The translations under genes were made by a program, and so were the position numbers. The notes below the pieces were generated by a model. The model worked only from the letters and a program-made list of their open reading frames with translations, ran no database searches and was not told the origin of the DNA. Below are positions 4,787-56,494 of a stretch of 64,000 nucleotides of DNA, piece after piece. How positions within the stretch are numbered: the stretch's first letter is position 1; each line of letters opens with the position of its first letter. Source of the DNA: a virus (taxonomy: Duplodnaviria > Heunggongvirae > Uroviricota > Caudoviricetes); IMG/VR virus record IMGVR_UViG_2671181136_000006. One strand, given 5' to 3'.

Positions 4787-4847
4787 GTGTTTTTCTCTTA
4801 TCGTTTAGTAACTACATTCTTACACAAATTAGGTAAGTATTTACCTA

Positions 4848-6533
4848 TCATTTAACGCGTTTGAAAACGTATACGCTGACTGTGATCCCTGTGTCTTCAA
4901 ACTCGTTGGTAAACGACTTCCCTCTGGCATAAACGTAATTATCCATCGTCATCCAGTCCAGTATTGGCGCAGTGCCCGGCAATACTGCTACAAGACGCCC
5001 GCCGACTTTCAGATGCCCAAGCGCAGCCAGAGTGTGCTCTCTATGACGACCAAGCGAGTACGGCGGGTTCATAACGATTTTGTCGAACTGATAACCTGCG
5101 TTGTCCTCAGACCACTTTATGAAGTCGCAGCAAATCGTGTTCGTATACCCTTTTCCACGCAGGATATCAGCGAAGAGAGGTGCGATTTCTATGCAGGTAA
5201 CATCTTCCAGATCGGCGTTAATATAGGCCAGAAGATCCCCACGTCCGGCTTGAGGCTCCAGCAGCTTCTCACCAGGCTTCAATTCAGTGGCTCTGGCAAC
5301 GTACTCAGCAATCAAGCGTGGGGTAGGGTAGAACTGGTGTGATTTTGTATCCGGTATTAATCCGGTAGCCACAATCGTATTTAGCGTATGGACGATGTCA
5401 TACGGGAACTGCCAGTGTTTTTTCTCCTGCACGCCGCCAATGAAGCTCAGTGTGCGCTCAAGCTCTTCCACCTGCGACTTCTGGAGAGCTGAATCAGAGA
5501 AGTACCATACGCCTTTGTCTTTGCTCAATCGCCCGTCACGAAGCGCAGTGCGAACCGGCACGGAGATCGTCTTCTGGATTAACCCGAACTGCTTTGGTGC
5601 CCGTGTTTTTGGCGCGGTGCGACATGGCGCGGGGATTGCAGCAGGCATACTGTAAGCCAGCACCTCATTCAACTTCCAGGCCACGTCAGGATGTATTTCA
5701 AAGTGAACGTTGCCGTTCTTGAACATCTTCACGCGCATCAGATTTCCATCGACGTTCATCCAGTCACCGGTCTGGCAGTCGTTTGCCCGATACGCAGCTG
5801 ATAGCACCTCAGCAGTGCGGTTGATGGTAATAAATTCTTTGTGCGCGAAGAAATGAAGCAAGACACGCAGATCGTCGATGTAGTCCTCTTTGCGATAGTT
5901 CACGCTAACGCTGTCCCGCCAGAAATCAGAAATGCAGTCAGCGATTATCAGCCGCTCGCTGAAACCGTTTGTCTTATTTGTCTTGTGCGCAGGACTCAGC
6001 GCCTTAAACAAGCCATACACGCGCTCAGAGAGATATTTGTGCCTGTCATTCAGCAAATTAAGCATCGTGGGTATGACCGTTTCTGCTTTGAACTCCGGTA
6101 CACCAACGAACTCTTTAACCTTCATCTGGTAGCCGGTTCTGTCAGTTTTGATGACTTCCTGTTTGCCCTCTATAAACTGCTCGCGCCACTCATCTCGACG
6201 GGAAGCTGGCATGATCAGCAAAACGTTAGTCATGTCCGTGACCTTCCTCCAGTACTCGGCCCAAATATTCTGTTTCACCCATTCCAGATCGACTTTATCC
6301 AACCAACCTCGATTTAAACGCGAGCGATCTTCATCTGGTCGATGGTTTAGTCTCAGCAGGCGATTAATCATGTTGTGGCGTTCGTCGCCATAAACGAAGT
6401 CGTGTACCTGATACATGAAGGCGATCTCTTTCTCGCACTCGGCCACGATTTCGTGGATGACATTCATTTCCTGACGATAGTCGATAGCCGTGTTTGAGCT
6501 GGCATCGTCGATGATGGAAAGGGCTGTATTCAT
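4848..6533 (-). CDS. DNA N6-adenine methyltransferase with large uncharacterised N-terminal domain
   Basis: C-terminal third carries EPQAGRGDL (AdoMet-binding-like) and NPPY catalytic motif; about 330 aa N-terminal region without recognised motif. Confidence 0.65.
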   Translation of the reverse strand: MNTALSIIDDASSNTAIDYRQEMNVIHEIVAECEKEIAFMYQVHDFVYGDERHNMINRLLRLNHRPDEDRSRLNRGWLDKVDLEWVKQNIWAEYWRKVTDMTNVLLIMPASRRDEWREQFIEGKQEVIKTDRTGYQMKVKEFVGVPEFKAETVIPTMLNLLNDRHKYLSERVYGLFKALSPAHKTNKTNGFSERLIIADCISDFWRDSVSVNYRKEDYIDDLRVLLHFFAHKEFITINRTAEVLSAAYRANDCQTGDWMNVDGNLMRVKMFKNGNVHFEIHPDVAWKLNEVLAYSMPAAIPAPCRTAPKTRAPKQFGLIQKTISVPVRTALRDGRLSKDKGVWYFSDSALQKSQVEELERTLSFIGGVQEKKHWQFPYDIVHTLNTIVATGLIPDTKSHQFYPTPRLIAEYVARATELKPGEKLLEPQAGRGDLLAYINADLEDVTCIEIAPLFADILRGKGYTNTICCDFIKWSEDNAGYQFDKIVMNPPYSLGRHREHTLAALGHLKVGGRLVAVLPGTAPILDWMTMDNYVYARGKSFTNEFEDTGITVSVYVFKRVK

Positions 6534-6674
6534 AATTACACCATTAAATAATTTGTTTTCTGATTGGTGTAATTATCGCAAACTTGAAAAGGCATAAAAG
6601 CTGCATTCATAGGCGTTACAGCAGATTTAAGGCGTAAAAATGGGGGCTGTCGCCCCCTGTCGAATGGTGCTGTA

Positions 6675-7241
6675 TTAGAGTGCGTATTGCGTTTTGTGCG
6701 GCTGCTTATTCAAGTCATGGCGATGCGTAAGCTCCCGCATCATGTCTTCAAGGCGACTCTTTGTGTCGTCGAGCTGGTCGGCCATTGCACCTAAAAGCTG
6801 GCGAACGGCCATCGGATCGTCGCTGTTTAGTGATGGCATTTTAGAACCTGCTTTAGAAGACATAAGGTTGATTGCAGACATCAACATCGTTAGAGAGGAT
6901 TTAAGCCCGGCAATTTCACGATCTTTGCTGGCAATAATCGTCTCACTTTTGTTACCGTCATCAGTTTCTTGAGTCTCGCTCACCATATCCAAAGTCGCTT
7001 GCAACTTATCAGCTCTCTCTTTTTCAGCAAGGTAATGAACACCGAAATGGTGTGCCAAAGCTACAATCTGAGTTGGCTCTTCAAAGGTGGAATTAAAATT
7101 AAGTATTGTAAACAGTCTCTCAAATATGGAAACGTCTTCTATTCCTCGAAGAATGGCTAACATTTTGACCAGTTCATTAGCATCCATTTCTTCGAATAAG
7201 GCGTTTTGTTCATCAGCTATCGCTTTGCATTTCTTGCACAT
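6675..7241 (-). CDS. hypothetical protein
   Basis: 188-aa ORF with conserved upstream motif at 7261-7279. Confidence 0.4.
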   Translation of the reverse strand: MCKKCKAIADEQNALFEEMDANELVKMLAILRGIEDVSIFERLFTILNFNSTFEEPTQIVALAHHFGVHYLAEKERADKLQATLDMVSETQETDDGNKSETIIASKDREIAGLKSSLTMLMSAINLMSSKAGSKMPSLNSDDPMAVRQLLGAMADQLDDTKSRLEDMMRELTHRHDLNKQPHKTQYAL

Positions 7242-7538
7242 GTGTTTTTCCTAATACTTAAACAAGTTGTTTTCTTATTGGCTTTATTGTGATGTGGCAT
7301 AAAAGGGGAGCAAGCTAAACGTAAAGGTGCAAACTCTCTATTTCGGTCAACGAAACACAAGGGCCATTTGGCCCTTGTCATTAACACTTTGCTTTACGAA
7401 CTAACGGATAAGCGAAGTAGATCGCCAAACCAATGAGGACGCCATCAGAAATGACAGACATCATCTTTCCCGTAAAATCCACCAACACCGCCATCACCAG
7501 AAGAGCAATGACGATCACAAGCCGGAATCTCTCAAGCA

Positions 7539-7964: not shown

Positions 7965-8255
7965 GTGCTTTCCTTTTATTATTTGTCAAAACAAGTTGTT
8001 TTCTAATTACATAAATAGCTTACGCAGAGATGGTCAATGCATATGCACTAACAGCCGTCAGAAATAACCAAGTACCGAACCAACTGGAAAAACAAAAATC
8101 CCAACTACACGAGCCAAGGTCATGCCAGCCTGAAACTGGAGATCGCCAGAGCAAACAAGTTTTATAATGTTCGATACCCAACCGGCGGCCATAAGGGCAA
8201 GAATTGCCAGCCAAATTTTTCCAAAGTGATTTGAAAACCAGTTCATACAACCGCC

Positions 8256-8750: not shown

Positions 8751-8898
8751 GTGGACTCCATCCAGTGTCAGAAAGAGTTGCGGCTGGCGATTGCCAGCCG
8801 CCTTTCTCGTTCCATCCTGGAACTGTGTCTTACCGACACATTGTCATCCTGACGCCGATAAGATACATGATTTAAAATAATAGGTAAACACTTACTTA

Positions 8899-9489
8899 CT
8901 ATTTATTATAAACAAAACCAATATCTTTCTTGTGAGGCATATCTGCTGCTGAAAAAGCTGCGATCTTCGCGAGTCGATCACATATTTCATTTTCACGATG
9001 CCCGGCGTGACCTTTAACCCACTTCCAGCGAACATTATGTCGACTTGCGGCCTCATCCAGACGCTTCCACAGATCAACATTCTTTACTGGTTTTTTGTCA
9101 GAAGTCATCCATCCATTGCGTTTCCACCATTTCATCCACTGTGTCATGCCGTTTTTCAGATACTGGCTATCAGAGTGCAAAATAACGTTGCATGGATATT
9201 TCAAACGCTCCAGCCCGATAAGTGCCCCCATCATCTCCATGCGGTTATTGGTGGTGCTATGAAAACCATCTGAGAACTCGCGTTCCTCACCACGATACTG
9301 GAGAACGATACCGTAACCGCCCGGGCCACCCGGATTTTTAAGGCAAGAGCCATCACTAAAGATTTTCACGGTTTTAAGCTGGGGATTGAACTCTACGACA
9401 GGCGTTGTGGGATTGGTGCGGGGGGAATTTTTGTTTTTGGCTTTTTTGCGAGTTTTTGCTTGCGATCGGGCTGGTGTCTTCGTCGTCAT
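8899..9489 (-). CDS. rnhA: ribonuclease HI
   Basis: FSDGSC..NPGxGGYG...TNNRMEMMG...DSQY...KGHAGH..NE.CD motifs near-collinear with E. coli RNase HI; start set to ATG 9489 preceded by AGGAG; basic N-terminal extension. Confidence 0.9.
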
Positions 9490-10071
9490 ATAAACTCCTG
9501 AATCAAGCGCCGCGCCGATTTTTCCTCGCGCGTGCGCACACGCGTGCGTGTTAATAATTATTAAAATAAACAAATTACTTCCCAGAACAGGTTTTTATAA
9601 ACCTGAACTGAACGAACGAAGTGAGTGAAGTTCACCTCGAACGAAGTGAGAGGTTGTCTTTTCAGGTAATACTCTCCCAGGGAGGTGAGTATAAAAATCT
9701 CTCACCAACCTGGTCGTTTCATAACCTGAAAAGTTATGGTCTAAGTCTACTGCCAGCTTAGACTTGGGAAGTTATGGATGACAGCACCCCAGAACCGAGA
9801 TCTTCCCACACTTTATGAAGGGGAGTACTGGATTCAACCTCTCGAAACACCCCAGACTCGACAATCATAAAGTGACCCTTGTCTCTGCTCACTTTGGTTC
9901 CCCCTTCCCCGACACCTAAACGGCACCAGTTCTACGCTGGTAGTGAGCTTTTTTAAACCTGACGCCAGTGACGCTTACCCCCACCCATCAGGTCGAGTCT
10001 CCAGTCTACGACTGGAAACTATCAGATCTTAGCACTTACAATTCACTTTATGAATAGTTTGTACTTATCTA

Positions 10072-10326
10072 TCATTGTGATTGATTATTTTCTCTACCAT
10101 GTAGTTGAACATTCAAGGCAAACACCTCATTGATCAACTCACCTAAAAGCTGTTCAACAAGTTCGCGATGCTCGCCAAGATGCAAGCACTTAATTGCCCA
10201 TTCGTACAAGTTGAAAGCCTGCTCACGATCTTTCATCATTTCACGAGCCTGGGCCAGAAAATCGCTCTCTACGAGCGCAACGACATTAGTCGGGTATGAC
10301 ATGTTGGTTTCCTTAAAGTGGTTCAT
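10072..10326 (-). CDS. hypothetical protein
   Basis: 84-aa ORF. Confidence 0.35.
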   Translation of the reverse strand: MNHFKETNMSYPTNVVALVESDFLAQAREMMKDREQAFNLYEWAIKCLHLGEHRELVEQLLGELINEVFALNVQLHGRENNQSQ

Positions 10327-10404: not shown

Positions 10405-10468
10405 AGCTGCCTGCTTCCGTATATTAATAATTAATATGTAGTTATTTATATATACAGAAGCAGGCTAA
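10405..10468. repeat. about 60-bp element: 14-bp inverted arms (CCTGCTTCCGTATA) flanking AT-rich spacer; second copy at 56495-56555
   Basis: direct sequence comparison of the two loci. Confidence 0.7.
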
Positions 10469-11081: not shown

Positions 11082-11264
11082 CTTCTTTCTCGATAGGTAA
11101 GTATATACCTATTTTTGCATTTGATTTTATGTCTGGCAATCAAATAAAACGCGCCAGAAATGCAAACGAGAAGCTCTCTGGCGCGTTTTTGTGGTGCTGG
11201 GTATGTGATTGGCTTACCCAGTACTATAAAGCTCTCTATGGGCTTTATTTTAAGTAGGGGAACG

Positions 11265-14812: not shown

Positions 14813-15943
14813 TCACACCGCCACTGGAACCTTGATCCACGGTAGAGGGGCATAGCCAAGAATAAGAATCTCGTCCCATTTGAAATCATCCAGCTCAGAC
14901 CATTCATTAGGGAATATAACGACCGGATCTGAATGCTCTGGAGCCTGTCGTTGCATTAGCTCACACACACCTTCCATGTGGTTGTTGTACAAATGCACGT
15001 CAAAGCCAAAATGCACAAATGCACCGGCCATGTGACCCGTAATCTTCGCGAGAAAATGAGTGAGAATGCCATAGCCAGCAATATTGAATGGCATACCAAC
15101 AAAAGTGTCTACGCTACGCTGTACGAGGCAGGAGTTGAGGATGCGTTTGGGGATTCCAAGTTCATCCAGTTCAGCTTCAGTAACACTGCCGTCCATCTCC
15201 AGATCGTATAGCATCTTGGTGTAGATAGACTCGTAACCGAGGCGACTGTGTTGAAGACCAATGTCAGTTGCCATCGTTAAACGGGTTTCAAAATCCAGTT
15301 CACGACTCCACAAAGAGAAGACAAAGTGGCAAGGTGGCAGTTTCATATCCTCAAGCTCGCCTACGTTCCATGCGTTAAGCATGATGCGACGATCGGTAGG
15401 GTTCGTGCGCAGTGTATCGACAATACGCTGTAGCTGATCGATTTCACGGGACAGCACTACGCGATCTTCACTGATACCCAGGTATCCCTCGACTTTGTAC
15501 CCGCGTTCACGGAAAGTAGCGATCTTGCTCAGATATTCACTATGGCTCACGATGCGGGTATCTTCCCATCGACGCCACTGCTTACCGTAAACCGGCCCCA
15601 AATCGCCATTCTCATCGGCCCATGCATCCCAAATCTTAACGCCGTTATCCTTGAGAAATTGGATGTTGCCCGTGCCTTTCAGATACCACTCAAGTTCGAC
15701 AAGCAGTGGCTTAAGATTTACCGCCTTTCCAGAAATAAGCGGCACAGTCCCACCAGTAAGCATGTAGTAAGAGGGAACGTAACAGGTGCTTAAAGTACCA
15801 GTGCCTGTGCGATCATCAGCCTGCACGCCGCTTTTAAGCACCGTCTCAATAACTTTTGCATACGATGCGTTTGTTACCTGACCGTTCGTATGCTCACGAT
15901 TCAAAAGGAGTGACACAAAAACCTCACAAAGATAAGTAACCAC
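14813..15943 (-). CDS. thyA: thymidylate synthase (ThyA type) with two insertions
   Basis: DRTGTGTLS, GPVYGKQWR, MKLPPCH (catalytic Cys), GMPFNIAGY, HLYNNH motifs; GTG start in track, true start uncertain. Confidence 0.9.
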   Translation of the reverse strand: MVTYLCEVFVSLLLNREHTNGQVTNASYAKVIETVLKSGVQADDRTGTGTLSTCYVPSYYMLTGGTVPLISGKAVNLKPLLVELEWYLKGTGNIQFLKDNGVKIWDAWADENGDLGPVYGKQWRRWEDTRIVSHSEYLSKIATFRERGYKVEGYLGISEDRVVLSREIDQLQRIVDTLRTNPTDRRIMLNAWNVGELEDMKLPPCHFVFSLWSRELDFETRLTMATDIGLQHSRLGYESIYTKMLYDLEMDGSVTEAELDELGIPKRILNSCLVQRSVDTFVGMPFNIAGYGILTHFLAKITGHMAGAFVHFGFDVHLYNNHMEGVCELMQRQAPEHSDPVVIFPNEWSELDDFKWDEILILGYAPLPWIKVPVAV

Positions 15944-15993
15944 TTATTCATTGCGTGAGTTTACATTTATTGAGAGAACAAGACCAGACAGAT

Positions 15994-16025
15994 AAAAAAA
16001 TGGTGGCCATAGGCCACCAAAAACG
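15994..16025 (-). terminator. rho-independent terminator
   Basis: GGTGGCCATAGGCCACC hairpin flanked by A-run/T-run. Confidence 0.55.
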
Positions 16026-16087
16026 AATAGTTGTTTCAGAAATTTAACGCGCCAGCGCAATATACACAGATAGATAACTACCTACAA

Positions 16088-18177: not shown

Positions 18178-18283
18178 GTGTTTTTCCTTTTTCTTTTTTG
18201 GTGCGTTTAAACAAGTTGTTATCTTATGTGTTTAAACAAGGCTTACAAATCAAAGAGAAGGTGGGGATATCCCCCACCATATG

Positions 18284-20599: not shown

Positions 20600-20672
20600 G
20601 TATCACCAAATAAAGAGGGCCACTAAATATAGTGGCCCATGTTAATAGATAAGTACTTACCTATCAATGAAA

Positions 20673-25216: not shown

Positions 25217-25470
25217 GTGTTTTTCCTTTGTGGTTATTTTGATACAAATTTTAAGAGCAATGAGAAGGTAAACAACTATGCATAACGGTATGTTAGGAAT
25301 GAAACGAGCGTCTTAATATACAAAATTTATAAGTAAGTATATACCTATTTATTGTGGCGCAACTTTGCTTGTCTGTATGACTAAAAATAAGACAGGATCA
25401 CTGTAGAACGCTATGAGAGCTATTTTGAGGAGGCGTAGATTCTATCTACGCCAATATACGATCTGGAGGG

Positions 25471-36311: not shown

Positions 36312-36428
36312 GTGTTTCTCCTTGTTGTGATTTGGCCGATGGCGCTATGCGCGTTGGGCTTTCGTTCATTCGTGGCTCTTTCGAGCTGTTAAATGATAGA
36401 TCAGTACTTACTTATTATCTATCAAAAA

Positions 36429-36860
36429 TCAACGGGGAGTAATAAAGCGTTCAGAGCCTAATCGCTCTAATTCAACGATGGCCATCTTTGACGCCTGAAC
36501 GATCATGTCTCGGCGATGCGAAAAGGCGGCGACAGCATGTTTGTATATGTCTGCGATGTGCCGTGCTTCATCCAACTTCTGCCTTTTAGACAGATACTGT
36601 GGGTTTGTTTTAACCTTAGCGTCCAGTACAGATTCGTTGAACTTAATGCCGTTCATACTCAAGTTCTTACGCTCTGTGTCGTATAGCTTTGCTTCAACAG
36701 CTTCAAGGTTAAGTTTTGCCTCTGCGACACTTCTTTCTGCATGAGCGAGTTTTGAGCCATACTCCATTAAAAGGCGGGGTTGTCTGCGCCAGACTTCCTC
36801 CAGATTGTCTCGGTCAAACTCGAGATCAGACATTATTTTCTCGTAAATATCGGTGAACAT
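36429..36860 (-). CDS. hypothetical protein
   Basis: 143-aa ORF. Confidence 0.4.
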   Translation of the reverse strand: MFTDIYEKIMSDLEFDRDNLEEVWRRQPRLLMEYGSKLAHAERSVAEAKLNLEAVEAKLYDTERKNLSMNGIKFNESVLDAKVKTNPQYLSKRQKLDEARHIADIYKHAVAAFSHRRDMIVQASKMAIVELERLGSERFITPR

Positions 36861-36954
36861 GTGCTTTCCTTTTTACTTATCATCTTATATTGATTATATC
36901 ATTGTGATGATAAGGCAAGGAGTTCGAGGATAGGGGATATGAGGGGATAAGAGA

Positions 36955-36982
36955 AAACATGGCCATAGAGGCCATGTTTATT
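36955..36982 (-). terminator. rho-independent terminator
   Basis: CATGGCCATAGAGGCCATG hairpin with T-run on minus strand. Confidence 0.5.
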
Positions 36983-36985
36983 GGA

Positions 36986-40504: not shown

Positions 40505-40682
40505 GTGTTTTTACCTTTCTGGTTTTTTTGATTTTGTCATTGGGGAAGCCTACGAACTTCCCATGCATCGAAATCGCAACTTCTTTTGCTGATTGGTGAC
40601 AATCGGGCTTGTCTGGACACACCAGACAAGCCTTACCAGTTTCAGAAGCAGCGATAAGAGAGCCGAAACATCCTTTACGCAC
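40479..40682 (-). CDS. small Cys-rich hypothetical protein
   Basis: 67-aa ORF with CLVCPDKPDC. Confidence 0.25.
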   Translation of the reverse strand: MRKGCFGSLIAASETGKACLVCPDKPDCHQSAKEVAISMHGKFVGFPNDKIKKTRKVKTHEGTDGSN

Positions 40683-40684
40683 GA

Positions 40685-41920
40685 TTAACCAAATATTTTT
40701 TGAACAACTTCACGAGCCGCTTGTGCAGAAGCTGAAGGGAGTTTGTTAATGAAAGAACGCTCAATACCTGTCACAAAGTCGCCTCGCATCATTCCAATCT
40801 TGGCCGACAACAAAAGTTCACGAGGGCCAATTGGCTGACTAATGAGGTGTTCTTCGTATCCATCGCGAACGATACCGGCAAACTTAACCATCTTTTCAGC
40901 GTATTCATCCACGATGCCTGCATTTGTCAGCATGTTGATCTCTGCGTCTTTGCTCATGTATTTCACATTCGAAACGATGCCAAAACGCGAAAAGTTCGCG
41001 GCGTTCTGGATGTTTGTACCCTGGTACAAGCCGGTTTCATCACCAGATCCGTTCGTGTTGCCAGTGCCAATGAAAGCAAACCGTTCATGCGGAGTAATGC
41101 GACGCCATTCTGGAGTTGCCTCTTTGATGACCAACGCTTCACCTTCCAGCACTGGCTGATACACGCCAAGAATTTGTGGAAACGCAAAGTCGTATTCATC
41201 CGCGAGGTAAACCCAGCCATGCTTCATTGCGAGCGCAAGCAAGCCAGGTTCGAAATACGTAGAGCCATCACGCGCCAGAATTTGCCCCGTAACATGTGCC
41301 TCTTCCATTGATGCTGTATGTTGGGCACGGATCAACGGACGATTGAGCAAAGCACATAGCTGTGTAGGCAATGACGATTTGCCTGTTCCTGCATGACCCC
41401 ACAAATAGCCAGGTATGCCAAGTTCAAGCATCATGAAAATATCTTTGATCAGTTCGAAGTCGCCATATACGTAGCCTTTCTTCACTTCGGGAACGAACTC
41501 TGGATACGGCGTATTGACGTTGACGCTAACCATGAGCGGCGTCCCACGTTTTGTTCCGAGTTCTTCCACCGTTACGTTTAGCAGTTCGTGAGCTGCGACC
41601 AGATCTGTCTTGTACTCAACTGTGCCTGTGTAGCCAGGGCTACTGGTCAAGCCAGAAGATTTGGCCATTTCGCTTTTTTGCTCGGCACGTTTAGCTTGAA
41701 TTGCATCAAGTGCCTTTTTCGATAGCGTTGGTTCATCTGGAAACTGCGTTGTGTACATTTTCAGTACGGTGTCAGGATCGGCATCTTTTACTGACTCAGG
41801 AATGCCCTCGCAATTACCATTGGCTACATGGGACTTAAAATAGTGAAATGATTTGCCGCACCACTTGCAAACAAGGTAATCAGAAGGATTTTTTTCATTT
41901 TGCAGTGCAGTAGTCGTCAT
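40685..41920 (-). CDS. CobS-like AAA+ ATPase (MoxR family)
   Basis: Walker A GHAGTGKSS, N-terminal Cys cluster; paired with downstream vWA protein. Confidence 0.65.
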   Translation of the reverse strand: MTTTALQNEKNPSDYLVCKWCGKSFHYFKSHVANGNCEGIPESVKDADPDTVLKMYTTQFPDEPTLSKKALDAIQAKRAEQKSEMAKSSGLTSSPGYTGTVEYKTDLVAAHELLNVTVEELGTKRGTPLMVSVNVNTPYPEFVPEVKKGYVYGDFELIKDIFMMLELGIPGYLWGHAGTGKSSLPTQLCALLNRPLIRAQHTASMEEAHVTGQILARDGSTYFEPGLLALAMKHGWVYLADEYDFAFPQILGVYQPVLEGEALVIKEATPEWRRITPHERFAFIGTGNTNGSGDETGLYQGTNIQNAANFSRFGIVSNVKYMSKDAEINMLTNAGIVDEYAEKMVKFAGIVRDGYEEHLISQPIGPRELLLSAKIGMMRGDFVTGIERSFINKLPSASAQAAREVVQKIFG

Positions 41921-42015
41921 GCGTTTTTCCTTTGTTCTCTAATGAGCGTTCAACTTCTTATATAAATATATCATCATCTATCGTAAGTGGTTACTTATCA
42001 TTAAGGCTGTTTTGT

Positions 42016-44124
42016 TCACTTTAAAATGATACGAGATAGTTCAGTAACTACAGATGAACCAAGACTATCAACGCTCGTTACCAGGGCATGATTTGAGTAA
42101 AATCTCTCCGGTGCGTCAGTCATGATGCCAATTGCCATCAAATCAATATCAGTCTGCGTTTCAATTTGCTTCGCAACTGAACGCAAATGAGCGTCAAAAC
42201 CTCTCCCAACAGCCCACGGCGCGCCATCACTCAGAACAAGCATGATCTTCCTGTCCTCCAAGCGACCGGAAAATAACGATGCAAGGCTGGCTATGCTTTC
42301 ACCATCCACGTTATTAAGAAGTGGGAATGTGTAGCCTACGCACCCCATACGTGAGCGAACTTCGCGAGAATTTACCTTTTCATTCCAATTTTTGATGATA
42401 GGTAGCATTAAAGATTCAAAGCGAGAGAACTCATACTTGACAGCCTTAAGTTCTCCTGCCGCCATATGACTACCAAATGTAGTGAAGCCGGTGATAATGT
42501 TGGGAACATTTATTCGATCAAGGGCATCGGCGATGGTATATGCACTTGCAAGAGCCAATTGTATCGTTATACCACTCATTGAACCTGATAAATCAATCAC
42601 TTGTTGAACACAGGCGTTAACGGCTTTAGATTCTTCTTTTTTACGAAACACGCGAGCATCATTCATTGCTAATCTGTAGATACTAGAACCATGAATGCGC
42701 CCCCGACGCTGGCCCGGTATAAACTGAACTCTGTTTCTGCTTGCTATTGCTCGCTCCAGGTCTTTTGCCAGCGTCGACGAAACACCTGACGAAAGATGCT
42801 TTTCAATATATTTGTCGAAGAGCTGGTTGCCTTCAGGAACGATGCGATAGCGGCTGATTGGATATCCTCCCAAATCAATATCGGAGAATGTTTTAATAAG
42901 CCGTTTGATATGGGCTTCTGCCTGATCAATCGAGCCGATGAAGTCGTATGAGCGATTGTATGGCCTGTATTCGCTTTTCGAGCTTTCTGTTAACTCGCTT
43001 TTAATCGTTTCGGATAGCGCATCTTCTGTCATGCCTCCGACTTCATCTTCCATGCTATCCAACTCCTCTAAAGCCTCTTCCAGACTCATTTTTGACGGAG
43101 TTGGGATATCTGAAGAGCCGTCTTCTGTCGTTTTTCTTTTTTCGTGGTCAGCGGTTAATGATTCTGACGCCGCGTTATCAGAAGCATCAGAATCTGATAC
43201 CTCTTTATCATTTTCTGTATCATCGAATATTGTTTCTGATGATTCAGAATTATCTGAATCATCACTGTCGTTATTATCATGTTTGTGCTTACTGTGTGAT
43301 TCTGATTTGATAGATTTGTGATTATCTAACACTGAGGGTGTCTCATGATCTTCGTTGTCTTCACTGTTTTCTCCAGAGGCATCCGTCTGGTCAGCGTCTG
43401 AAGGATCGGAAGTTTTTCCCGGAGCTGACTCCTTACCTTTGCTTTCACTTTCAGTGTCTTTGAGGATCTTAGCTATGGTCGCAGCCACCTTTACACAATC
43501 CTCGGTGCAAGACATGTTACGCACGGCCACATCGATACCATGTTCTTTTAATAATGAAATTGGTTTCTCAATGACAGGCCAATATTCATCCATGAAATCT
43601 ACGAACGGTGCTTGGCCATCCCAGGCTCTTACAACCGGACAGAGAAAGAAGTTTAGAAAAAGCGCGCGCTGATCTTTGCCACAATAAGCAATAGCCTCTG
43701 AAGCCTTTGGTTTAAAGACTTTTTCGATTATAAGGCGCTGAGTTGCCATCAGATTACGTCTTGTTCCGTTAAAGACCTGACCCATTTTTCGCTCGATGAA
43801 CACGTCTTCTAAGGCATTCCATAGCGACCAGGAAGGAACGCGTCCTTTTTCTCTCATTTTGTTGGACACACGAATATCGGTAAACAAAATGTGAGCAACC
43901 TCATGATCGAGAAATCCGCGCACAGCATTCATCAATGCCGGTGTTGCGTTATCCGGGATTGATGGGATGTTTACGAGAATTGGCTCTCCATCATCGTTAT
44001 AGCGAACATAAGCGTCGTCCCCTCGTTCTGCAACAGGGATGTTTTTACCTGAAAGGAGAGCGACTACTCGTTTTACACTGTCACGGAAGTCCTGAACCTC
44101 TTTGATGGAACGTTTTTTAGACAT
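42016..44124 (-). CDS. CobT-like protein with acidic low-complexity region and C-terminal vWA domain
   Basis: D/E/S-rich stretch (about aa 230-340), vWA MIDAS-like DLSGSMSG. Confidence 0.6.
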   Translation of the reverse strand: MSKKRSIKEVQDFRDSVKRVVALLSGKNIPVAERGDDAYVRYNDDGEPILVNIPSIPDNATPALMNAVRGFLDHEVAHILFTDIRVSNKMREKGRVPSWSLWNALEDVFIERKMGQVFNGTRRNLMATQRLIIEKVFKPKASEAIAYCGKDQRALFLNFFLCPVVRAWDGQAPFVDFMDEYWPVIEKPISLLKEHGIDVAVRNMSCTEDCVKVAATIAKILKDTESESKGKESAPGKTSDPSDADQTDASGENSEDNEDHETPSVLDNHKSIKSESHSKHKHDNNDSDDSDNSESSETIFDDTENDKEVSDSDASDNAASESLTADHEKRKTTEDGSSDIPTPSKMSLEEALEELDSMEDEVGGMTEDALSETIKSELTESSKSEYRPYNRSYDFIGSIDQAEAHIKRLIKTFSDIDLGGYPISRYRIVPEGNQLFDKYIEKHLSSGVSSTLAKDLERAIASRNRVQFIPGQRRGRIHGSSIYRLAMNDARVFRKKEESKAVNACVQQVIDLSGSMSGITIQLALASAYTIADALDRINVPNIITGFTTFGSHMAAGELKAVKYEFSRFESLMLPIIKNWNEKVNSREVRSRMGCVGYTFPLLNNVDGESIASLASLFSGRLEDRKIMLVLSDGAPWAVGRGFDAHLRSVAKQIETQTDIDLMAIGIMTDAPERFYSNHALVTSVDSLGSSVVTELSRIILK

Positions 44125-44222
44125 GGCTAATCCTTTGTTATGAAAACAAATTATTTACTAGTGTGTTTAATGTAGCACTGCGCGAACAGGGAACTAAGCC
44201 ATTCGCGCAGGGAGAAGAGGGG

Positions 44223-44435
44223 TTAACAGATTCTGACGGCTAAAGACCCGGAGCCGGTATTGAGAAGCGTGAAGCGTTTGTTGTTAAATTCGAATATAAA
44301 GCCAGTTGTGTCATTCACACCAACCTGAATCTGCTCATTCGGTAGATCGGTGAGGATGTCAGCTACACACTCATCAGCTAATTTCTGTACGTGTCCGATC
44401 TCAAGAGCGATTAGGCTGGAAATAGTGGTGTTCAT
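44223..44435 (-). CDS. hypothetical protein
   Basis: 70-aa ORF. Confidence 0.3.
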   Translation of the reverse strand: MNTTISSLIALEIGHVQKLADECVADILTDLPNEQIQVGVNDTTGFIFEFNNKRFTLLNTGSGSLAVRIC

Positions 44436-44612
44436 TCAATCAATCCATTCTAACTTATACTATGGTAAGGAATACTACTAAAATTTATATCAATACTGAA
44501 TACATTCATATCATATACAAGTTAATTTTCTTACCTGTTTTGGGCTAATTTTTCTCCGTGCAATGGCCTTTAACCGGTCTTTTAAGTGCCTATCGAAAAA
44601 AATGATAATAGC

Positions 44613-44657
44613 TTTACAACCCTAACCTTTGATGTAATATCGGTAAGCACTTACCAG
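44613..44657 (+). promoter_or_regulatory. sigma70-like promoter (TTTACA-16-TAATAT) with palindromic operator CGGTAAGCACTTACCAG just downstream
   Basis: -35 at 44613-44618, -10 at 44635-44640, palindrome 44641-44657 belongs to the dispersed GGTAAG..CTTACC family. Confidence 0.55.
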
Positions 44658-44686
44658 TGAGAATTGAACGCGCAAAGGTTGTAACA

Positions 44687-45073
44687 ATGTCTGACAACAA
44701 GATTGAATTTATAGAAAGTCGCTATGCTGCTTTTATCGCAGGGCTGATTGAATCCTCACCTATGAGTCAGGCCCAAATAGCCAGACTTATTGGTTATAAA
44801 AATGCCAACAACCTTTCTTTAATTAAAAGTGGCAAAATTCCTTTGCCTATCGATAAGGTTCGTCCGTTGGCGCTGGCGCTGGGTATTGAGCCAAGTCGTC
44901 TTATGATGATGGTGCTGGAAGAACGCCAACCTGAACTCGCAGCATTTTTATACAAAGAAGGCACCGCTCCTCTTAACGAGGACGAAAAACAGGTTCTTGC
45001 TGCATATAACGAGCGATTCGGTAAAGAGAAAGGCGCATCACAAAAGGTTGTTGAGGCTATAAAGTCTCTATGA
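44687..45073 (+). CDS. HTH DNA-binding protein (XRE-like), candidate repressor
   Basis: SQAQIARLIGYKNANNLSLIKSG helix-turn-helix pattern; start set to MSDNK (ORF track starts 44657). Confidence 0.5.
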   Translation: MSDNKIEFIESRYAAFIAGLIESSPMSQAQIARLIGYKNANNLSLIKSGKIPLPIDKVRPLALALGIEPSRLMMMVLEERQPELAAFLYKEGTAPLNEDEKQVLAAYNERFGKEKGASQKVVEAIKSL

Positions 45074-46171
45074 AAAATTTACACGAATAAGCTCTGTTGA
45101 TAGACGATCTCCCTTGAATTTGTGGTCAATTTCGTCTAAATCCGGTTGCTCTACGATTGATGCGATGTACGTCGAGAAACTTTCTAAGGCGTCTCGCATC
45201 TCGTCCATATAATCGTGCCGGTCGTAGACTCGATCTATCCCCTCAAGACTGTGGTTCATGATTTTGCGTGATACCTCCTGGCTTATGCCTAATGCTGGGA
45301 AGTAACTACGCGCAGTACGGCGCAAGTCTCGGGGTGTAAATGGCTCAAGCTCCATCAGTTCTGGTCGTTCCAGAATACGACGTAATGCCTGGGCTATTGC
45401 CACTTTAGACATAGGAAGGTCTTTCCCGATTTTTTTATTCGAAGGCACGAGCCACTGGCTGCCTTTACCGTATTCGAACAACTCTTCAATACATGTGCGC
45501 ATTAATGTGCTTAAAGGCAGCGAATGCTCACGGGCAGATTTGTTCCTCTTGCCTTGATTCCAAACCCCACGCTTAAGATTGAACTCACTTTTTTTAGCCC
45601 GCAGTACTTCGTCAGGTCGTCTTGCGGATACAAGACACAGCCTGGCCGCCCATTTTGTACCAGCGCACACATTGAAGTAGTCCCATATATTCCAGAACAC
45701 CCATACCTCTGCGTCGGTCAGCTTCCGCTCGCGAGGTGTGGGCTTTGCGCCACCGGCAACTTTGTTTAGTGACATATCGTTTAACGGTGACACGTCTATC
45801 ATCCCCTGGAAGGCGCACCAGCTAAGGAACTGCTTCATCAGAGAGAAAACGCGGCGGCCCATAACAATTTTGCCATCCAGTATTAGTGGGTTGACCAGTT
45901 GGTTCACCATGAACCTATTAATGTCACTTACTTTTACATCGGCAATGTGCGGCAAAACATGTATCAAAATACAATGAACAGCGATCTCTGGCCGACGTCT
46001 GGTTATCAGCAGAGATAAGCGAGTGAATAACATGAATGCGTCCGAGAATCTCATGTCATTGCTGACCTGGGAGATCATAACGGCCTGCATTTGAGATGCT
46101 CTTTCGAGATACTCAATCGCCTCTTTTGAGGTGTTCTCCGCAGCGCGTGCTCTGTCAAAGCTATTTTTCAT
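45068..46171 (-). CDS. tyrosine site-specific recombinase (integrase/resolvase family)
   Basis: C-terminal catalytic pattern R...H..R...Y (RDLRRTARS; HSLEGIDRVYDRHDY). Confidence 0.8.
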   Translation of the reverse strand: MKNSFDRARAAENTSKEAIEYLERASQMQAVMISQVSNDMRFSDAFMLFTRLSLLITRRRPEIAVHCILIHVLPHIADVKVSDINRFMVNQLVNPLILDGKIVMGRRVFSLMKQFLSWCAFQGMIDVSPLNDMSLNKVAGGAKPTPRERKLTDAEVWVFWNIWDYFNVCAGTKWAARLCLVSARRPDEVLRAKKSEFNLKRGVWNQGKRNKSAREHSLPLSTLMRTCIEELFEYGKGSQWLVPSNKKIGKDLPMSKVAIAQALRRILERPELMELEPFTPRDLRRTARSYFPALGISQEVSRKIMNHSLEGIDRVYDRHDYMDEMRDALESFSTYIASIVEQPDLDEIDHKFKGDRLSTELIRVNFS

Positions 46172-46269
46172 ATGACAATCACCGAGTTACGCCGATTCAC
46201 TGTATAAGTAAACAGTATATTAGGCATAGATTCTTATAGGATCAAGAGTAAAAGTAACTCATTTTCACT

Positions 46270-46438: not shown

Positions 46439-46993
46439 ATGCACTTGCATAAGTTGGTTACACCTGGTTTGGCTTCATTGCCGGGTGATCTGTCATATTT
46501 AGATATAGACTTTGTTTTCTCTGGCAATGAAGCTCGTAAGGCTAGATACCGTTTAGTCTTTTGCCCTCCTTCTTTAGATCCTGTTGCCGCAGAAACTATG
46601 CATAATATGTTAGGTGCTGATGTTTATGGGTTGTGTGTATCTGTCGTTAGTTTTGTGGACATGATTCAACTTGACAGGCAGCAAGAACAGCTCCAGAATG
46701 TCGCTCTTGGAGCGGAAGAGCCAATTAACGTATTTGCCAAACCCGAAGGGTCTTTTAATCTTACTTTAGGTGAACTTCAATACCTTTACGGTACTTTAGT
46801 TGACTTAATGCTCAAAGTTGCCGACAATGAAGGCATACAGATTTTATTCTTTGCGGCAGAACGCGAAGAACTGATGGCCACATACAAGAGATATGTGAAG
46901 AGATTTACACAAGAGCGTGGCCTAACTTATTTAAATGACGGAGCTTCCTATGCGATACGAACACAACACTACCCAAAACAAAGGGAAGATTGA
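46439..46993 (+). CDS. hypothetical protein
   Basis: 184-aa ORF after AT-rich region. Confidence 0.4.
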   Translation: MHLHKLVTPGLASLPGDLSYLDIDFVFSGNEARKARYRLVFCPPSLDPVAAETMHNMLGADVYGLCVSVVSFVDMIQLDRQQEQLQNVALGAEEPINVFAKPEGSFNLTLGELQYLYGTLVDLMLKVADNEGIQILFFAAEREELMATYKRYVKRFTQERGLTYLNDGASYAIRTQHYPKQRED

Positions 46994-47992: not shown

Positions 47993-48079
47993 TGGCGGAG
48001 AGTAATGGAATCGAACCATCATCGCTTGCGCAATGGGACGGTTTTCAAGACCGCTTGAGCACCATGCTCCCTACTCTCC
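47993..48079 (-). tRNA. tRNA-Ser (anticodon TGA), class II with long variable arm
   Basis: manual fold: 7-bp acceptor GGAGAGT/ACTCTCC, anticodon loop CTTGAAA, T-loop TTCGATT, encoded CCA. Confidence 0.75.
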
Positions 48080-48443
48080 GGCCGTTGTGGTGGCCGGTAC
48101 TGAATCTCCGGCATACGGTGCAGCCAATTAGGACTACGGACGATCACCGCTCGCGAAAGGGAAGATTTGCGGCCGCATTTCCCTAACATCCAAGAAAGCT
48201 ATCGCATCAGTCTGCGAATCCACCACAACGGTAAGATCACTACCTTTCGACCAGTCATTGTGCACATGAACGACGATTAACCGTAATGATCTTATCGTTG
48301 TGTTGTGAAGCCAGATGCTTATCTTCTGGTTGCCTCAAAGAGCTGCACTTCCTCACAACGGTAAGAGCACTGGTCTGACTCTATCGATTTACGGGCTTGT
48401 GGGTCAGTATCGCCGATTCGCCCAATGCACTTACCTGTTGTGT

Positions 48444-48519
48444 TGGTGCCGGTTAACGGACTCGAACCGCTGACATCCTGCTTACAAGGCAGACGCTCTA
48501 CCAACTGAGCTAAACCGGC
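48444..48519 (-). tRNA. tRNA-Thr (anticodon TGT)
   Basis: acceptor GCCGGTT/AACCGGC, D-loop AGCTCAGTTGGTAGAGC, anticodon loop CTTGTAA, T-loop GGTTCGAGTCC, CCA. Confidence 0.85.
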
Positions 48520-48523
48520 AATT

Positions 48524-48610
48524 TGGTGGGGAGTGATGGAGTCGAACCACCCGAGTCGCCATGACAGTAGATTTACAGTCTACCCCGCTGCCCCTACGGA
48601 CTAACTCCCC
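48524..48610 (-). tRNA. tRNA-Tyr (anticodon GTA), long variable arm
   Basis: acceptor GGGGAGT/ACTCCCC, anticodon stem GTAGA/TCTAC loop CTGTAAA, T-loop GGTTCGACTCC, CCA. Confidence 0.8.
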
Positions 48611-48615
48611 TAAAT

Positions 48616-48690
48616 TGGCGATGGTGGGTGGATTCGAACCACCGACCAGTTGGTTAACAGCCAACTGCTCTACCGCTGAGCTACACCATC
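48616..48690 (-). tRNA. tRNA-Asn (anticodon GTT)
   Basis: acceptor GATGGTG/CACCATC, anticodon stem GTTGG/CCAAC loop CTGTTAA, T-loop GGTTCGAATCC, CCA. Confidence 0.85.
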
Positions 48691-49468
48691 AATTCAGCAC
48701 TGCCAGTATTTATTACTCAACAGTGCCAATCGCGACGGTTTAGTTTCTGCCAGGAAACGCACCGCTACTTGCACTTTTCGTTAGTGCCAGACGCTTTCGA
48801 CTTCGCTCAATAGTAGAAGGCAAAATCTTTAAGTAGATGATGTTTCTGAGGACAGCACCTACTTTGTAATTTATACAATGTGATGTATGGAATCATTTGT
48901 TGTGAAAACAGGCACCAATGGCAACAGTGGTTAAACCTACACAACAATCCTGTCTTCACAACGTTGAGGCCACTACTCCGATTGAATGTTTGCCCAACAT
49001 GTTACATATCAACGCTCGCCGGTATCTCTGTGAATAGAACCTTAGAATTGATAAAAATGTAATGGCCTCAACGTTATGTGCTGGCTAACCATACCAGCCG
49101 GGCTACGTCGCCGCTTTTTAACCCAGTATAAACGACATAATTGAACAAAATGACGTAACAGGATGGGCGGTCAGTGGCTAAGAATCCGGGAGTCATATGG
49201 AGTTGAAAATATACCAACCGCCCATTCTGTTACTTCATCGGAGGGAACATGAATGTTCCCTCCTGCGTTCTGCAATCACACTCGCTCAGTGTGTCCCATT
49301 TCGGTAACGAGGCTGGAAACTGACCTCGCTGGTGTTTGGCTTATTAGGCTACTGCCAGATAGACTTCTTCGTTTGCACTTGTATTTAAGTTCAAACAGTC
49401 GCGTCTCAACGAAAACAAAGTCATCTTATACACAAAAGATAAGTAAGTAAATACTTATCAATATGTTT

Positions 49469-52081: not shown

Positions 52082-52136
52082 AAATAATCTTGTACTTACC
52101 TATCGTTATTTGCGTAAAAAACGACGCGCGGAGAGA

Positions 52137-52919: not shown

Positions 52920-52994
52920 ACCAACTCCTAGCTAACAGATGAAAGTATTCTCACAGAAAGATAAGTAATCATCTACTTATTTTAAAGGTGATTG

Positions 52995-55598: not shown

Positions 55599-55641
55599 GT
55601 GCTTTCCTTTGTTTTTTAAACAAATTGTTTTCTAGTATTAG

Positions 55642-56391
55642 TTAATTAGATAGGGGATCAATAAACCGCCGTGCTTCTTCCAGTTCTTCTGGAAAGTGGG
55701 CGGAAATAAGGCGCTCTGGAACGATTTCCATTAGCCAGATAGCGGAGAAAATTGCGCGTATGCGCTTGCTGCGAGGGATGGTGCGCAAACGCTCCAGAAT
55801 CCACTCAAAATAGCTTTCCTGAATCGGGTTGAACTGCATGTCTCCCATATGCTTAAAGCTAACCAGAGAGTCATCCAGACGGGTTGTTGCGCGTCTGGCT
55901 AATTTCTCTTCAAATATCTCAATCAGTTCTGGCTGCCATAAATGCTGTGGGCGCGGCAGCTTGTCCCACAGCCGTCGTGCAGCTGCGGAAAGAACGGTGG
56001 AGATAAAGTAGTCGTATGAGCAGCAATAGCGGTCAGCAAACTGGCGTGCTTTCCATAGAGACGTTTTATTGGCAGTCGACAACTCCTGATAAGGCAGGCG
56101 TTTTAACCCGGTGGTGAACGGAGCTGTTTCAAAGTGTTCGCGACCGTGCGTCAGCATGATATTTGAGTACTGACGTTTGTATGCCTCCGTAAACAGACAG
56201 GTGGCCATAAGAGGATGCATGTCGCGGTAATCAAACCACTTCGTCTCGAAGAGTTCAGCCTCATCTTTACAGCGCGACAAACCAATGTTTTCAGCGACCC
56301 ACTTGTCCATAACAGCGGTATTCCACTCTGTCATGAAGTCGTACTGGTCGTTGTCGATGGTATCGAAAAAGATTTGGCTCATGTGGCTCAC
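55642..56391 (-). CDS. hypothetical protein
   Basis: 249-aa ORF. Confidence 0.4.
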   Translation of the reverse strand: MSHMSQIFFDTIDNDQYDFMTEWNTAVMDKWVAENIGLSRCKDEAELFETKWFDYRDMHPLMATCLFTEAYKRQYSNIMLTHGREHFETAPFTTGLKRLPYQELSTANKTSLWKARQFADRYCCSYDYFISTVLSAAARRLWDKLPRPQHLWQPELIEIFEEKLARRATTRLDDSLVSFKHMGDMQFNPIQESYFEWILERLRTIPRSKRIRAIFSAIWLMEIVPERLISAHFPEELEEARRFIDPLSN

Positions 56392-56494
56392 CCGGTAGGT
56401 AGTTACTTACTTATCACAATGAGCGGATGATAGCGACTGGTGGCAGTTTTTGGAAGTGAAAACGGAAGGGAGTTGTTCTGGTGGTGTCTTTTAA

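Follow-up and report, generated by a model that had tools for sequence, protein, structure and literature searches.

A dispersed 20-bp palindrome as candidate operator of a plasmid-state repressor in SSU5-like phage-plasmids

Described repressor systems and the element under study

The subject of this report is a palindrome that recurs in a 64,000-nt stretch of DNA (the window; IMG/VR record IMGVR_UViG_2671181136_000006) from a phage-plasmid of the SSU5 group. This palindrome probably serves as operator for a lysogeny (plasmid-state) repressor that the element itself encodes, and the most probable binder is the 128-aa XRE-type helix-turn-helix (HTH) protein encoded at 44687-45073. By analogy, the palindrome regulon, which was previously undescribed, appears to be of the same functional kind as the C1 operators of P1, the sites of the gp71 repressor of mycobacteriophage L5 and the conserved inverted repeats (CIRs) of Streptomyces phage phiC31. 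The proposed system resembles P1 C1 in that a phage-plasmid has a single immunity repressor with many operators over a genome of ~90-110 kb, one of them at the repressor gene itself, and lytic functions stay repressed while it exists as a plasmid. In P1, the operators are asymmetric and 17 bp long, C1 is not of the XRE type, and the late genes are controlled indirectly via Lpa. In contrast, the sites described here are 20-bp palindromes, the candidate binder has a predicted XRE fold, and sites are present directly inside the late structural operon. The phiC31 repressor c uses 17-bp palindromic CIRs, which are found at well over a dozen intergenic loci. As palindromic and dispersed sites they are, as described, the closest match in architecture, but phiC31 differs in host phylum, in element type (an integrating phage, not a plasmid-prophage) and in repressor family. 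The lambdoid XRE repressors (lambda CI, P22 c2, 434 cI) and the C proteins of restriction-modification systems share the fold predicted here, the binding of dimers to palindromic operators, the overlap with core promoters and autoregulation. However, lambdoid repressors act at few operators clustered at one or two loci, and the CI-type proteins carry an S24 domain, whereas here about 25-30 dispersed sites would be served by a protein without S24 domain. In L5, about 24 stoperators were described, each an asymmetric 13-mer that follows the direction of transcription and binds a repressor monomer; one of these sites is the operator of the early promoter (PMC9283540). As in L5, the sites reported here occur genome-wide, mainly in short intergenic gaps of early and late regions, and their consensus varies between relatives. 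Unlike those of L5, they are symmetric with independent halves and are often located inside promoter spacers, and a roadblock role is here only putative.

Family placement was done by megablast of positions 36000-46000 and 1-25000. The window belongs to an Escherichia coli phage-plasmid of the SSU5 group and shows 99.6% identity to pERB3f3 (NZ_MW590712.1), 95-98% to phage Cyrano (the pLF82 plasmid of strain LF82), ~80% to Salmonella phage SSU5 and ~77% to Klebsiella phage-plasmids. The SSU5-like family comprises 791 PLSDB records, Yersinia among them. The gene content of the window, as read from the annotations of Cyrano, pERB3f3 and SSU5, consists of T4-like replication, recombination and nucleotide-metabolism genes, nearly all of which are located on the minus strand. 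Plasmid functions (repA, parA and toxin-antitoxin genes) as well as a module of integrase and HTH genes are also within the window, and 14.6% of it is non-coding. An earlier note on this sequence held that a lysogeny or plasmid-state circuit of this kind has not been characterised for this element type. This agrees with our literature searches, in which neither the motif string nor a published operator or immunity circuit of SSU5-, pHCM2- or pMT1-type elements was found.

Sequence, distribution and conservation of the palindrome

Alignment of the copies in gene orientation gave a 20-bp consensus consisting of the half-sites ATAGGTAAGT and ACTTACCTAT. The core pattern is ATARGTAA-N4-TTACYTAT and the full form is ATAGGTAAGTACTTACCTAT. 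Positions 1-8 and 13-20 are high in information content, and the central positions are partly informative. The copies had been described as perfect or near-perfect palindromes, of which only the second term applies, since each copy has 1-4 deviations and none is a perfect 20-bp palindrome. The core pattern was found 14 times in the window with up to two mismatches, compared to 0 matches in 30 dinucleotide shuffles. A position weight matrix (PWM) detected 13 window sites at a threshold of ≥18 bits (0.05 in shuffles) and 20 sites at ≥12 bits (0.43 in 40 shuffles). As the PWM was trained on window sites, these two window counts are partly circular, which does not apply to the core-pattern counts or to those in SSU5. 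In SSU5, 26 matches with up to three mismatches were detected in 100 kb against ~0.5 expected, and their places correspond to those in the window. The earlier note had named a frequency no higher than in shuffled sequence, or a lack of conservation in related elements, as findings that would speak against the motif. Instead, the frequency lies far above background, and matching positions are occupied in SSU5, in Klebsiella plasmids and in Y. pestis pMT1.

The enrichment of the 20-bp palindrome and its intergenic placement are confirmed. 19 of the 20 PWM sites are wholly non-coding, and a site is present in 16 of the 41 intergenic gaps of ≥40 nt in the window. Within these 41 gaps, no site was found ahead of repA, parA, the toxin-antitoxin genes or the integrase gene. 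The distance from a site to the next minus-strand start codon ranges from 1 to 129 nt, and sites usually lie nearer to the stop codon upstream, mostly at -1 to 18 nt. All 15 copies listed previously were found at, or within a few bases of, the coordinates given for them. 13 are strong, those at 41979 and 52084 are weak, and the copy placed at 28845-28865 lies ~9 nt off the true site at 28836-28855.

Applied to the part of pERB3f3 outside the window (segment L002), the PWM revealed strong copies also in the late structural region. Copies follow the tail protein gene (4098), a minor capsid gene (17495) and the major capsid gene (21070), one is located between minor tail genes (11011), and others lie in the gap between terminase and portal genes (24493) and within the 3' end of the portal coding sequence (22986). 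A further copy is present in the divergent gap between a ParB-like gene and a helicase gene (30013). Klebsiella pJN2-26 and Y. pestis pMT1 carry the motif at matching places with diverged flanks. In view of the copies in the late genes of pERB3f3, in SSU5, in Klebsiella and in Yersinia, the palindrome is a genome-wide and family-wide feature and not restricted to the early region. Because the sites extend into the late operon, the arrangement is closer to the L5 stoperators and the phiC31 CIRs than to P1, whose scattered C1 operators had been taken as the model.

The earlier note had argued that loop-less palindromes suit a dimeric protein better than RNA hairpins. This argument alone is weak, because an 8-bp stem with a 4-nt loop could arise from any palindrome of this type, but its conclusion gains support from a covariation test between the half-sites. 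For 58 distinct sites, mirrored outer positions were compared, and the right halves were shuffled among the sites. Watson-Crick pairs between the halves amounted to 345 of 464, compared to 344.2 +/- 5.6 after shuffling, and where position 5 is an A, its partner is still C in 10 of 11 cases. Predicted hairpins of the palindrome range from 0 to -8.3 kcal/mol and two sites do not fold, in contrast to GC-rich hairpins a few bases off with -14.6 to -17.8 kcal/mol. The independence of the halves and the weak predicted hairpins argue for a DNA site of a two-fold symmetric dimeric protein and not for an RNA element. A function in RNA, as weak intrinsic terminator, processing site or stabilising hairpin between cistrons, would suit the position of the sites soon after stop codons, the T-rich sequence that often follows them and the feasible stem-loop. 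However, it is most improbable, as compensatory variation is absent and the energies are low compared to the genuine GC-rich hairpins nearby. What is conserved across sites and genera is the primary sequence and not the pairing, and the T-richness is mirrored by A-richness upstream. Furthermore, no sites follow the plasmid-maintenance genes, and one copy spans a predicted transcription start. An intrinsic terminator or structured RNA was rejected on the basis of these energies, the missing compensatory changes and an inconsistent T-tract.

Promoter context of the palindrome

Promoters were searched by an independent consensus scan and, separately, by a simple sigma-70 score within 45 nt of the 20 sites. 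The scan found promoter-like sites to be sparse, with 19, 19 and 12 per 20 kb, which is below shuffles. Five of the predicted minus-strand promoters coincide with palindromes (32876, 36396, 28836, 20645 and 11093; site names give the first of the 20 positions). At 32876, 36396 and 28836 the palindrome fills the spacer, and its last TAT opens the -10 element. The best sigma-70 score near the sites averaged 9.7 bits on the gene strand compared to 7.6 bits on the opposite strand, and a score of ≥7 bits was reached at 20 of 20 sites on the gene strand and at 12 of 20 on the opposite strand.

The palindrome at 32876-32895 (25.1 bits) fills the 17-bp spacer of TTGAAA-17-TATTAT (32901-32873, minus strand); in pMT1 the -35 element, the palindrome and the -10 element are kept, while the flanks have diverged. 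At 36396-36415 (24.3 bits), upstream of the gp32-like single-stranded DNA-binding protein (SSB) gene, it lies in the spacer of TAGATA-17-TATCAT (36421-36393, minus strand), and palindrome and TAnnnT are kept in E. coli, SSU5, two Klebsiella lineages and Yersinia. For the copy at 28836-28855 (22.9 bits), the predicted promoter is TTTATA-16-TATCAT, whose -10 element takes up motif positions 18-23; this copy is conserved in pMT1 (L008 579), pJN2-26 (L007 44805) and SSU5 (L006 8074). The best copy of the window (28.6 bits, 20645-20664; SSU5 L006 17775) is located between a RuvC-like gene and nrdA together with the predicted promoter TTGATA-17-TAACAT. At 11093-11112 (27.0 bits), 11 nt ahead of the start codon of the adenine methyltransferase gene, the transcription start of the predicted promoter TTGCCA-17-AAAAAT (11139-11111) falls inside the palindrome. 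The copy at 52961-52980 (22.1 bits) lies in the spacer of TTTAAA-17-TATCTT with the next start codon 41 nt on. The one at 49439-49458 (25.8 bits) lies 10 nt past a stop codon and upstream of a tRNA cluster, and the predicted promoter there is TTTACT-17-TAAGAT. Outside the window, the portal-gene copy of pERB3f3 is located within TTGAAA-17-TATGAT. In alignments of orthologous gaps, the -35 element, the palindrome and TAnnnT are kept, and the adjoining bases diverge.

Five further strong copies were found. The copy at 4829-4848 (26.1 bits) overlaps the stop codon of a DUF4942 methyltransferase-like gene, with the next start codon at 4786, 42 nt on; an identical copy is present in SSU5 (L006 34178). 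At 8880-8899 (24.4 bits), the copy extends into the RNase H stop codon, with 129 nt to the following start codon. Sites at 15932-15951 (19.5 bits) and 25329-25348 (26.8 bits) precede the start codons of thyX and of an SbcD-like gene by 15 nt and 112 nt, respectively. In a divergent intergenic region, the copy at 56395-56414 (22.8 bits) is located 12 nt ahead of the start codon at 56382 and is conserved in pJN2-26 (L007 14983). The remaining strong copy of the window, at 44639-44658, belongs to the HTH gene and is described below.

Stable GC-rich hairpins with T-runs (-15 to -18 kcal/mol) were observed at 20617-20638 and 8780-8801, between the palindromes at 20645 and 8880 and the next start codons, where they leave no space for a further promoter. 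Terminator-like hairpins at 16001-16019 and 32911-32931 are located just upstream of the palindromes at 15932 and 32876. The placement of a hairpin between palindrome and start codon suggests leader attenuators or 5' stabilisers and is also common in an Acinetobacter relative (L010).

The register between palindrome and predicted promoter is variable. In four sites the -10 element starts at motif coordinate 18, and in the rest it is found elsewhere, over a range from -20 to +49. With the palindrome in the spacer, at the start site or at the -35 element, this variability fits operators that occlude RNA polymerase and not an activator element at a fixed distance, which was therefore rejected. 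The earlier note had counted at least 15 transcription units behind the palindromes. This number may be too high, as some copies are found within genes or at a distance of only 1-15 nt to a start codon and may therefore act at the transcription start or as roadblocks instead of marking separate promoters. In SSU5, the terminase-portal gap of 32 nt holds a copy at 2031-2050. For such promoter-less copies, a block to elongating RNA polymerase is plausible from their position, and some copies may be only roadblocks.

P1 late promoters contain a palindrome centred near -22 and need the activator Lpa. A comparable site for a lytic-cycle activator, built into special promoters, would agree with those sites in which the -10 element occupies motif positions 18-23, as this puts the centre of the palindrome ~20 bp upstream of the predicted start. 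Late genes are preceded by sites, and an absent activator would also explain the silence of the genes behind the sites in the lysogen (see below). We nevertheless regard an activator site as quite unlikely. Besides the varying register, some sites are too close to start codons (1-15 nt), and several of the associated promoters have good -35 and -10 elements with 17-bp spacing and therefore should not need activation. One copy covers the start region of the promoter of the HTH gene, which is expressed in the lysogen, and no activator candidate was identified. Promoters of a phage-encoded sigma factor or RNA polymerase were also rejected, as no RNA polymerase gene is present among the annotated ORFs of the relatives and a sigma-70-family gene was found in the Acinetobacter relatives only. 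It is located between the AAA ATPase gene and dnaE in both of them (L015 15101-15766 and L010 8306-8974), and tblastn detected none in the six enteric loci (the window and five relatives).

Candidate repressor, alternative binders and further elements

The HTH gene (44687-45073, plus strand) points away from the lytic array and towards the integrase gene. Its product matches PHROG 8, annotated as transcriptional regulator, with E = 6.6e-12. An AlphaFold2 model (pLDDT 78, core 85-91) predicts the five-helix fold of XRE helix-turn-helix proteins followed by a helical C-terminal extension. The top Foldseek matches are the dimeric XRE regulators C.BclI, C.AhdI, P22 c2, the 434 repressor and the SPC32H repressor, with TM scores of 0.7-0.8 on the target; a sequence search of solved structures gave no meaningful match to the HTH protein. 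Upstream of the gene, a predicted promoter TTTACA-16-TAATAT (44613-44640, plus strand) is immediately followed by a palindrome at 44639-44658 (18.3 bits), whose inner core GGTAAGCACTTACC is perfect. This copy, 29 nt ahead of the HTH gene, touches or overlaps the -10 element of the promoter and is a putative operator for autoregulation. Promoter and palindrome form the sole strongly conserved block upstream of the gene in E. coli, Klebsiella and Yersinia, and the arrangement looks like a textbook autoregulated promoter.

By tblastn, the HTH protein was detected in 961 plasmids (Klebsiella 348, Escherichia 230, Enterobacter 92, Yersinia 63, Salmonella 49). These counts per genus match those of the family backbone, and the HTH protein is present in essentially every plasmid-state relative. 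Its homologues form 55 clusters, which are found almost only on contigs of 100-116 kb. The HTH protein was not found in the virion isolate SSU5. On the ligase side of the expected module position, SSU5 shares ~99% identity with Enterobacter plasmids that carry the HTH gene, and its cobT side aligns at a separate place in those plasmid records. SSU5 has the appearance of a derivative that recently lost the repressor by deletion and kept its operators. A parallel is given by the lytic phage D29, which lost ~3.6 kb including the repressor relative to L5 and kept the sites (PMC5712189).

Expression data are available for the LF82 lysogen of Cyrano. CYRAN_45, annotated as putative repressor, was expressed there 10-fold over background (PMC9928086), and it is 98% identical to the HTH protein of the window. 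The other expressed Cyrano genes were toxin-antitoxin, partition and accessory genes (PMC9928086). None of the lytic genes behind the palindromes of the window is on that list of expressed genes. Cyrano is reported to be induced by DNA damage (PMC9928086). No S24 self-cleavage domain was found in the 128-aa HTH protein, and induction must therefore be indirect. A separate gene for an S24 peptidase of 128 aa is located elsewhere in the relatives (pERB3f3 L002 44435-44824).

Palindrome and recognition helix were compared between lineages. In the canonical enteric form, the helix NNLSLIKSGK is at least 90% conserved and goes along with the half-sites ATAGGTAAGT and ACTTACCTAT. The E. coli variant P0032 (locus L013) has the helix QNQVSFIKSGK and half-sites shifted to GTATGTAA, with T at position 4 in 9 of 20 half-sites compared to 7 of 68 in four canonical loci. 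In two distant syntenic lineages of Acinetobacter baumannii, the HTH gene is in the same position, and a palindrome is present in the same intergenic setting with copies in the HTH-divergent region. Group A (NZ_CP140436.1) combines the helix PNVLSMIKSGE with ATCAGTCAGT and ACTGACTGAT (16 matches compared to 0.22 expected), and group B (NZ_CP043456.1) combines QNMVSFIVRGK with ATTAGTAAGC and GCTTACTAAT (8 matches compared to 0.05 expected). The -10 element (TATACT or TATAAT) often overlaps the downstream end of the Acinetobacter sites, which makes the directional evidence clearer than in the enterics. In the divergent Klebsiella plasmid STEFF14 (L011), the HTH protein is only 47% identical, yet motif (essentially) and recognition helix are the same; as both are unchanged, this plasmid is uninformative for covariation.

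The motif thus tracks the element lineage and not the host species, which argues for an element-encoded binder, and the adjacent HTH protein is the obvious candidate. A host transcription factor common to Enterobacterales, replaced by a different one in Acinetobacter, would explain the single consensus across elements of E. coli, Salmonella, Klebsiella, Enterobacter and Yersinia, which differ by ≥20% in DNA. We regard such a factor as highly improbable, since two lineages from the same host species, A. baumannii, have two palindromes and one E. coli lineage has shifted half-sites. To our knowledge, the consensus fits no enterobacterial regulator. A LexA box was rejected, as the palindrome does not fit CTGT-N8-ACAG and the sole such box of the window is a separate element (46200-46215).

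Dispersed SopB sites are known from N15, and RK2 has 12 KorB operators (OB palindromes). Both resemble the present case in palindromic sites that are dispersed on a plasmid or phage-plasmid and in the global silencing that is proposed here. Centromere-like or silencing sites for ParB-family proteins of the element would accordingly have dispersed palindromes, as is typical of parS or OB sites. The relatives also encode two adjacent proteins with ParB_N domain, and a palindrome is located 17 nt from the start of the first (L002 30013). Unlike the full ParB-family proteins of RK2 and N15, which are tied to partition, these proteins show the ParB N-terminal domain only, and no HTH was found in them. 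Their genes are not on the list of genes expressed in the lysogen (PMC9928086). Moreover, no site is located beside parA (58819-59097) or repA, and the sites track lytic promoters. ParB- or KorB-like sites are therefore very unlikely and were rejected.

The earlier note proposed one master repressor with the HTH protein as a candidate. This is the best-supported explanation, based on the independent halves, the overlap with promoters, the copy at the HTH promoter, the distribution of the HTH protein and the lineage variants; the analogy to P1 holds less well, as sites are also found in the late structural operon. Several observations weigh against the HTH protein as binder and repressor. The flanks of the enteric sites are near-symmetric, with T at +3 in 24 of 36 cases compared to 17 of 36 in the mirrored position, and the directional evidence for the -10 element is therefore modest in these sites. 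For the copies within 1-15 nt of start codons or inside genes (portal, cobT), a separate promoter is doubtful. The Pfam matches of the HTH protein to HTH_19 and HTH_3 are below the curated thresholds, the E-values of the Foldseek matches are weak (1e-2), and the protein has no recognisable self-cleavage domain. SSU5 retains all sites without the HTH protein. The silence of the downstream genes in the lysogen is equally expected if the site binds an activator that is present in the lytic cycle only. At the HTH promoter of L013, the copy is canonical, and pJN2-26, which has a near-canonical helix, shows T at position 4 in 6 of 26 half-sites, which weakens the shift seen in L013. Finally, the lineages compared are diverged elements, and therefore any other encoded DNA-binding protein would covary too.

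The last point concerns in particular a second repressor or Cro-like regulator of the element, such as the 70-aa product of the first leftward gene (44223-44435), with the HTH protein in a narrower role, for example local control of the integrase module. Covariation cannot separate proteins encoded on the same element, the 26 SSU5 sites persist without the HTH protein, and the score of the HTH promoter copy (18.3 bits) is one of the lower ones. Against such a regulator, the HTH protein is the sole recognisable DNA-binding regulator reported as expressed in the Cyrano lysogen (PMC9928086), and its promoter forms with the palindrome the conserved core of the immunity region. Lineages with an invariant motif also have an invariant recognition helix, a different motif goes along with a different helix, and the small ORFs tested show no match to a DNA-binding family. 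A regulator of this kind is unlikely, but most of the probability that does not fall on the HTH protein falls on another element-encoded regulator.

With the HTH protein as repressor, a dimer would bind to two half-sites of 8-10 bp (ATAGGTAAGT and its inverse) at about 25-30 operators over the ~110-kb genome, located in short gaps between lytic genes on the same strand. Many of these operators would fill the 17-bp spacer of sigma-70-type promoters and others would cover the predicted transcription start, so that occupancy would block initiation; the promoter-less copies could act as roadblocks to elongation. In the plasmid state, the genes for replication, nucleotide metabolism, recombination and structural proteins would be silenced together. 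Through the weaker copy at its own promoter, the repressor would limit its own synthesis. The regions of repA, parA, toxin-antitoxin and integrase genes, which have no site, would stay expressed. A more far-reaching reading is tentative, possible rather than probable: the whole lytic programme of a ~110-kb phage, from early replication to late structural genes, would use ordinary sigma-70 promoters with the same palindromic operator in their spacers and be gated directly by a single small XRE dimer, without an early-middle-late cascade, the promoter-less copies would be roadblocks, and variants of operator and helix would set immunity groups among the SSU5, pHCM2 and pMT1 phage-plasmids, which are widespread in the clinic.

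Among the large 'cryptic' plasmids of Enterobacterales, SSU5-like phage-plasmids rank with the commonest; they include pMT1 of Y. pestis and pERB3f3, which carries blaCTX-M-15. If the proposed circuit is true, it provides a promoter and operon map for ~100 largely unannotated genes and predicts immunity groups from at least three or four operator variants. The lytic behaviour of SSU5 would be explained by the loss of the immunity module, and the operators would be possible handles for curing or inducing these elements. It would also add a Gram-negative case with symmetric operators to the few phages which silence their whole genome via dozens of dispersed repressor sites.

Near the HTH gene, the ORF at 46439-46993 (plus strand) matches PHROG 28788 without a Pfam match and is located within the module that SSU5 lacks. 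In the LF82 lysogen, its homologue CYRAN_43 was by far the top-expressed prophage gene, with a level 723-fold above background (PMC9928086). Between this ORF and the integrase gene, a perfect LexA-type box (CTGTATAAGTAAACAG) occupies 46200-46215, with 29 nt to the minus-strand start codon of the integrase gene (46171). A similar box (ACTGTATGTATATACAGT) is present at the same place beside the integrase gene of the divergent Klebsiella plasmid STEFF14 (L011 21334). As a speculation, such a box could drive SOS-dependent transcription of the integrase gene, converging on the HTH repressor gene.

Among the weak copies of the palindrome, the one at 41979-41998 (12.3 bits) is located between the CobT-like and AAA ATPase genes, and its position is conserved in SSU5 and pMT1. 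The copy at 52084-52103 (12.3 bits) is essentially a single good half-site. In a long gap without a large ORF, a copy at 10430-10449 (16.5 bits) is accompanied by a second weak one at 10053-10072 (13.8 bits). The copy at 16066-16085 (12.6 bits) lies 2 nt past the stop codon of a MazG-like gene. In the divergent region 56383-56656, a copy at 56519-56538 (12.8 bits) has the same sequence in pERB3f3 (L002 26534). A copy within the acidic repeat region of the CobT-like gene is degenerate in the window (43310-43329, 11.3 bits) and strong in Klebsiella (L007 31932), Yersinia (L008 14997) and SSU5 (L005 43661). Downstream of the strong palindrome at 49439, a cluster of four tRNAs (Ser, Thr, Tyr, Asn) is encoded at 47993-48690 on the minus strand, and these tRNAs may belong to the same repressed set.

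At the ends of the window, two differences to pERB3f3 were observed. The insertion of ISEcp1-blaCTX-M-15 in pERB3f3, the closest plasmid relative (L004 4541-6934), is located roughly where the window has the ORFs between 3702 and 4848, and the window has no ORFs there that match the insertion. Neither the final 40 bases of the window nor the 40-mer 63001-63040 has an exact match in the pERB3f3 segment L002, which spans the expected window end. The G+C content is 57.5% at 62001-64000 compared to ~45% elsewhere, and this part of the window may be a variable tail-fibre or host-range segment.

The gp32-like SSB gene has a 5' untranslated region (36312-36395) that is unusually conserved in E. coli, SSU5, Klebsiella and Yersinia. 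This region may be a site of translational autoregulation like that of T4 gene 32. The inverted repeat AAACAA-n-TTGTTT is part of a second dispersed motif, AGAAAACAAnTTGTTTAA, which has 10 matches with up to three mismatches compared to 0.41 expected. Its copies at 3635-3652, 6544-6561, 7258-7275, 7987-8004, 18207-18224, 31728-31745, 44141-44158, 55616-55633 and 58852-58869 are mostly on the gene strand. They are located 10-30 nt upstream of start codons, in gaps without the 20-bp palindrome (dnaB, nrdB, DUF4942, cobT, parA). The motif resembles AU-rich translational leaders or operators, like the T7 gene 10 leader or the T4 RegA sites, and could represent a second regulon. FljA is the repressor of phase-1 flagellin and acts on mRNA. 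A full-length FljA homologue (PF03614, E = 1.5e-84) is encoded in pERB3f3 at L002 32414-32938 and is annotated as transcriptional regulator/repressor (CYRAN_114 in Cyrano, SSU5_121 in SSU5). This protein could be a candidate for the second, leader-located motif.

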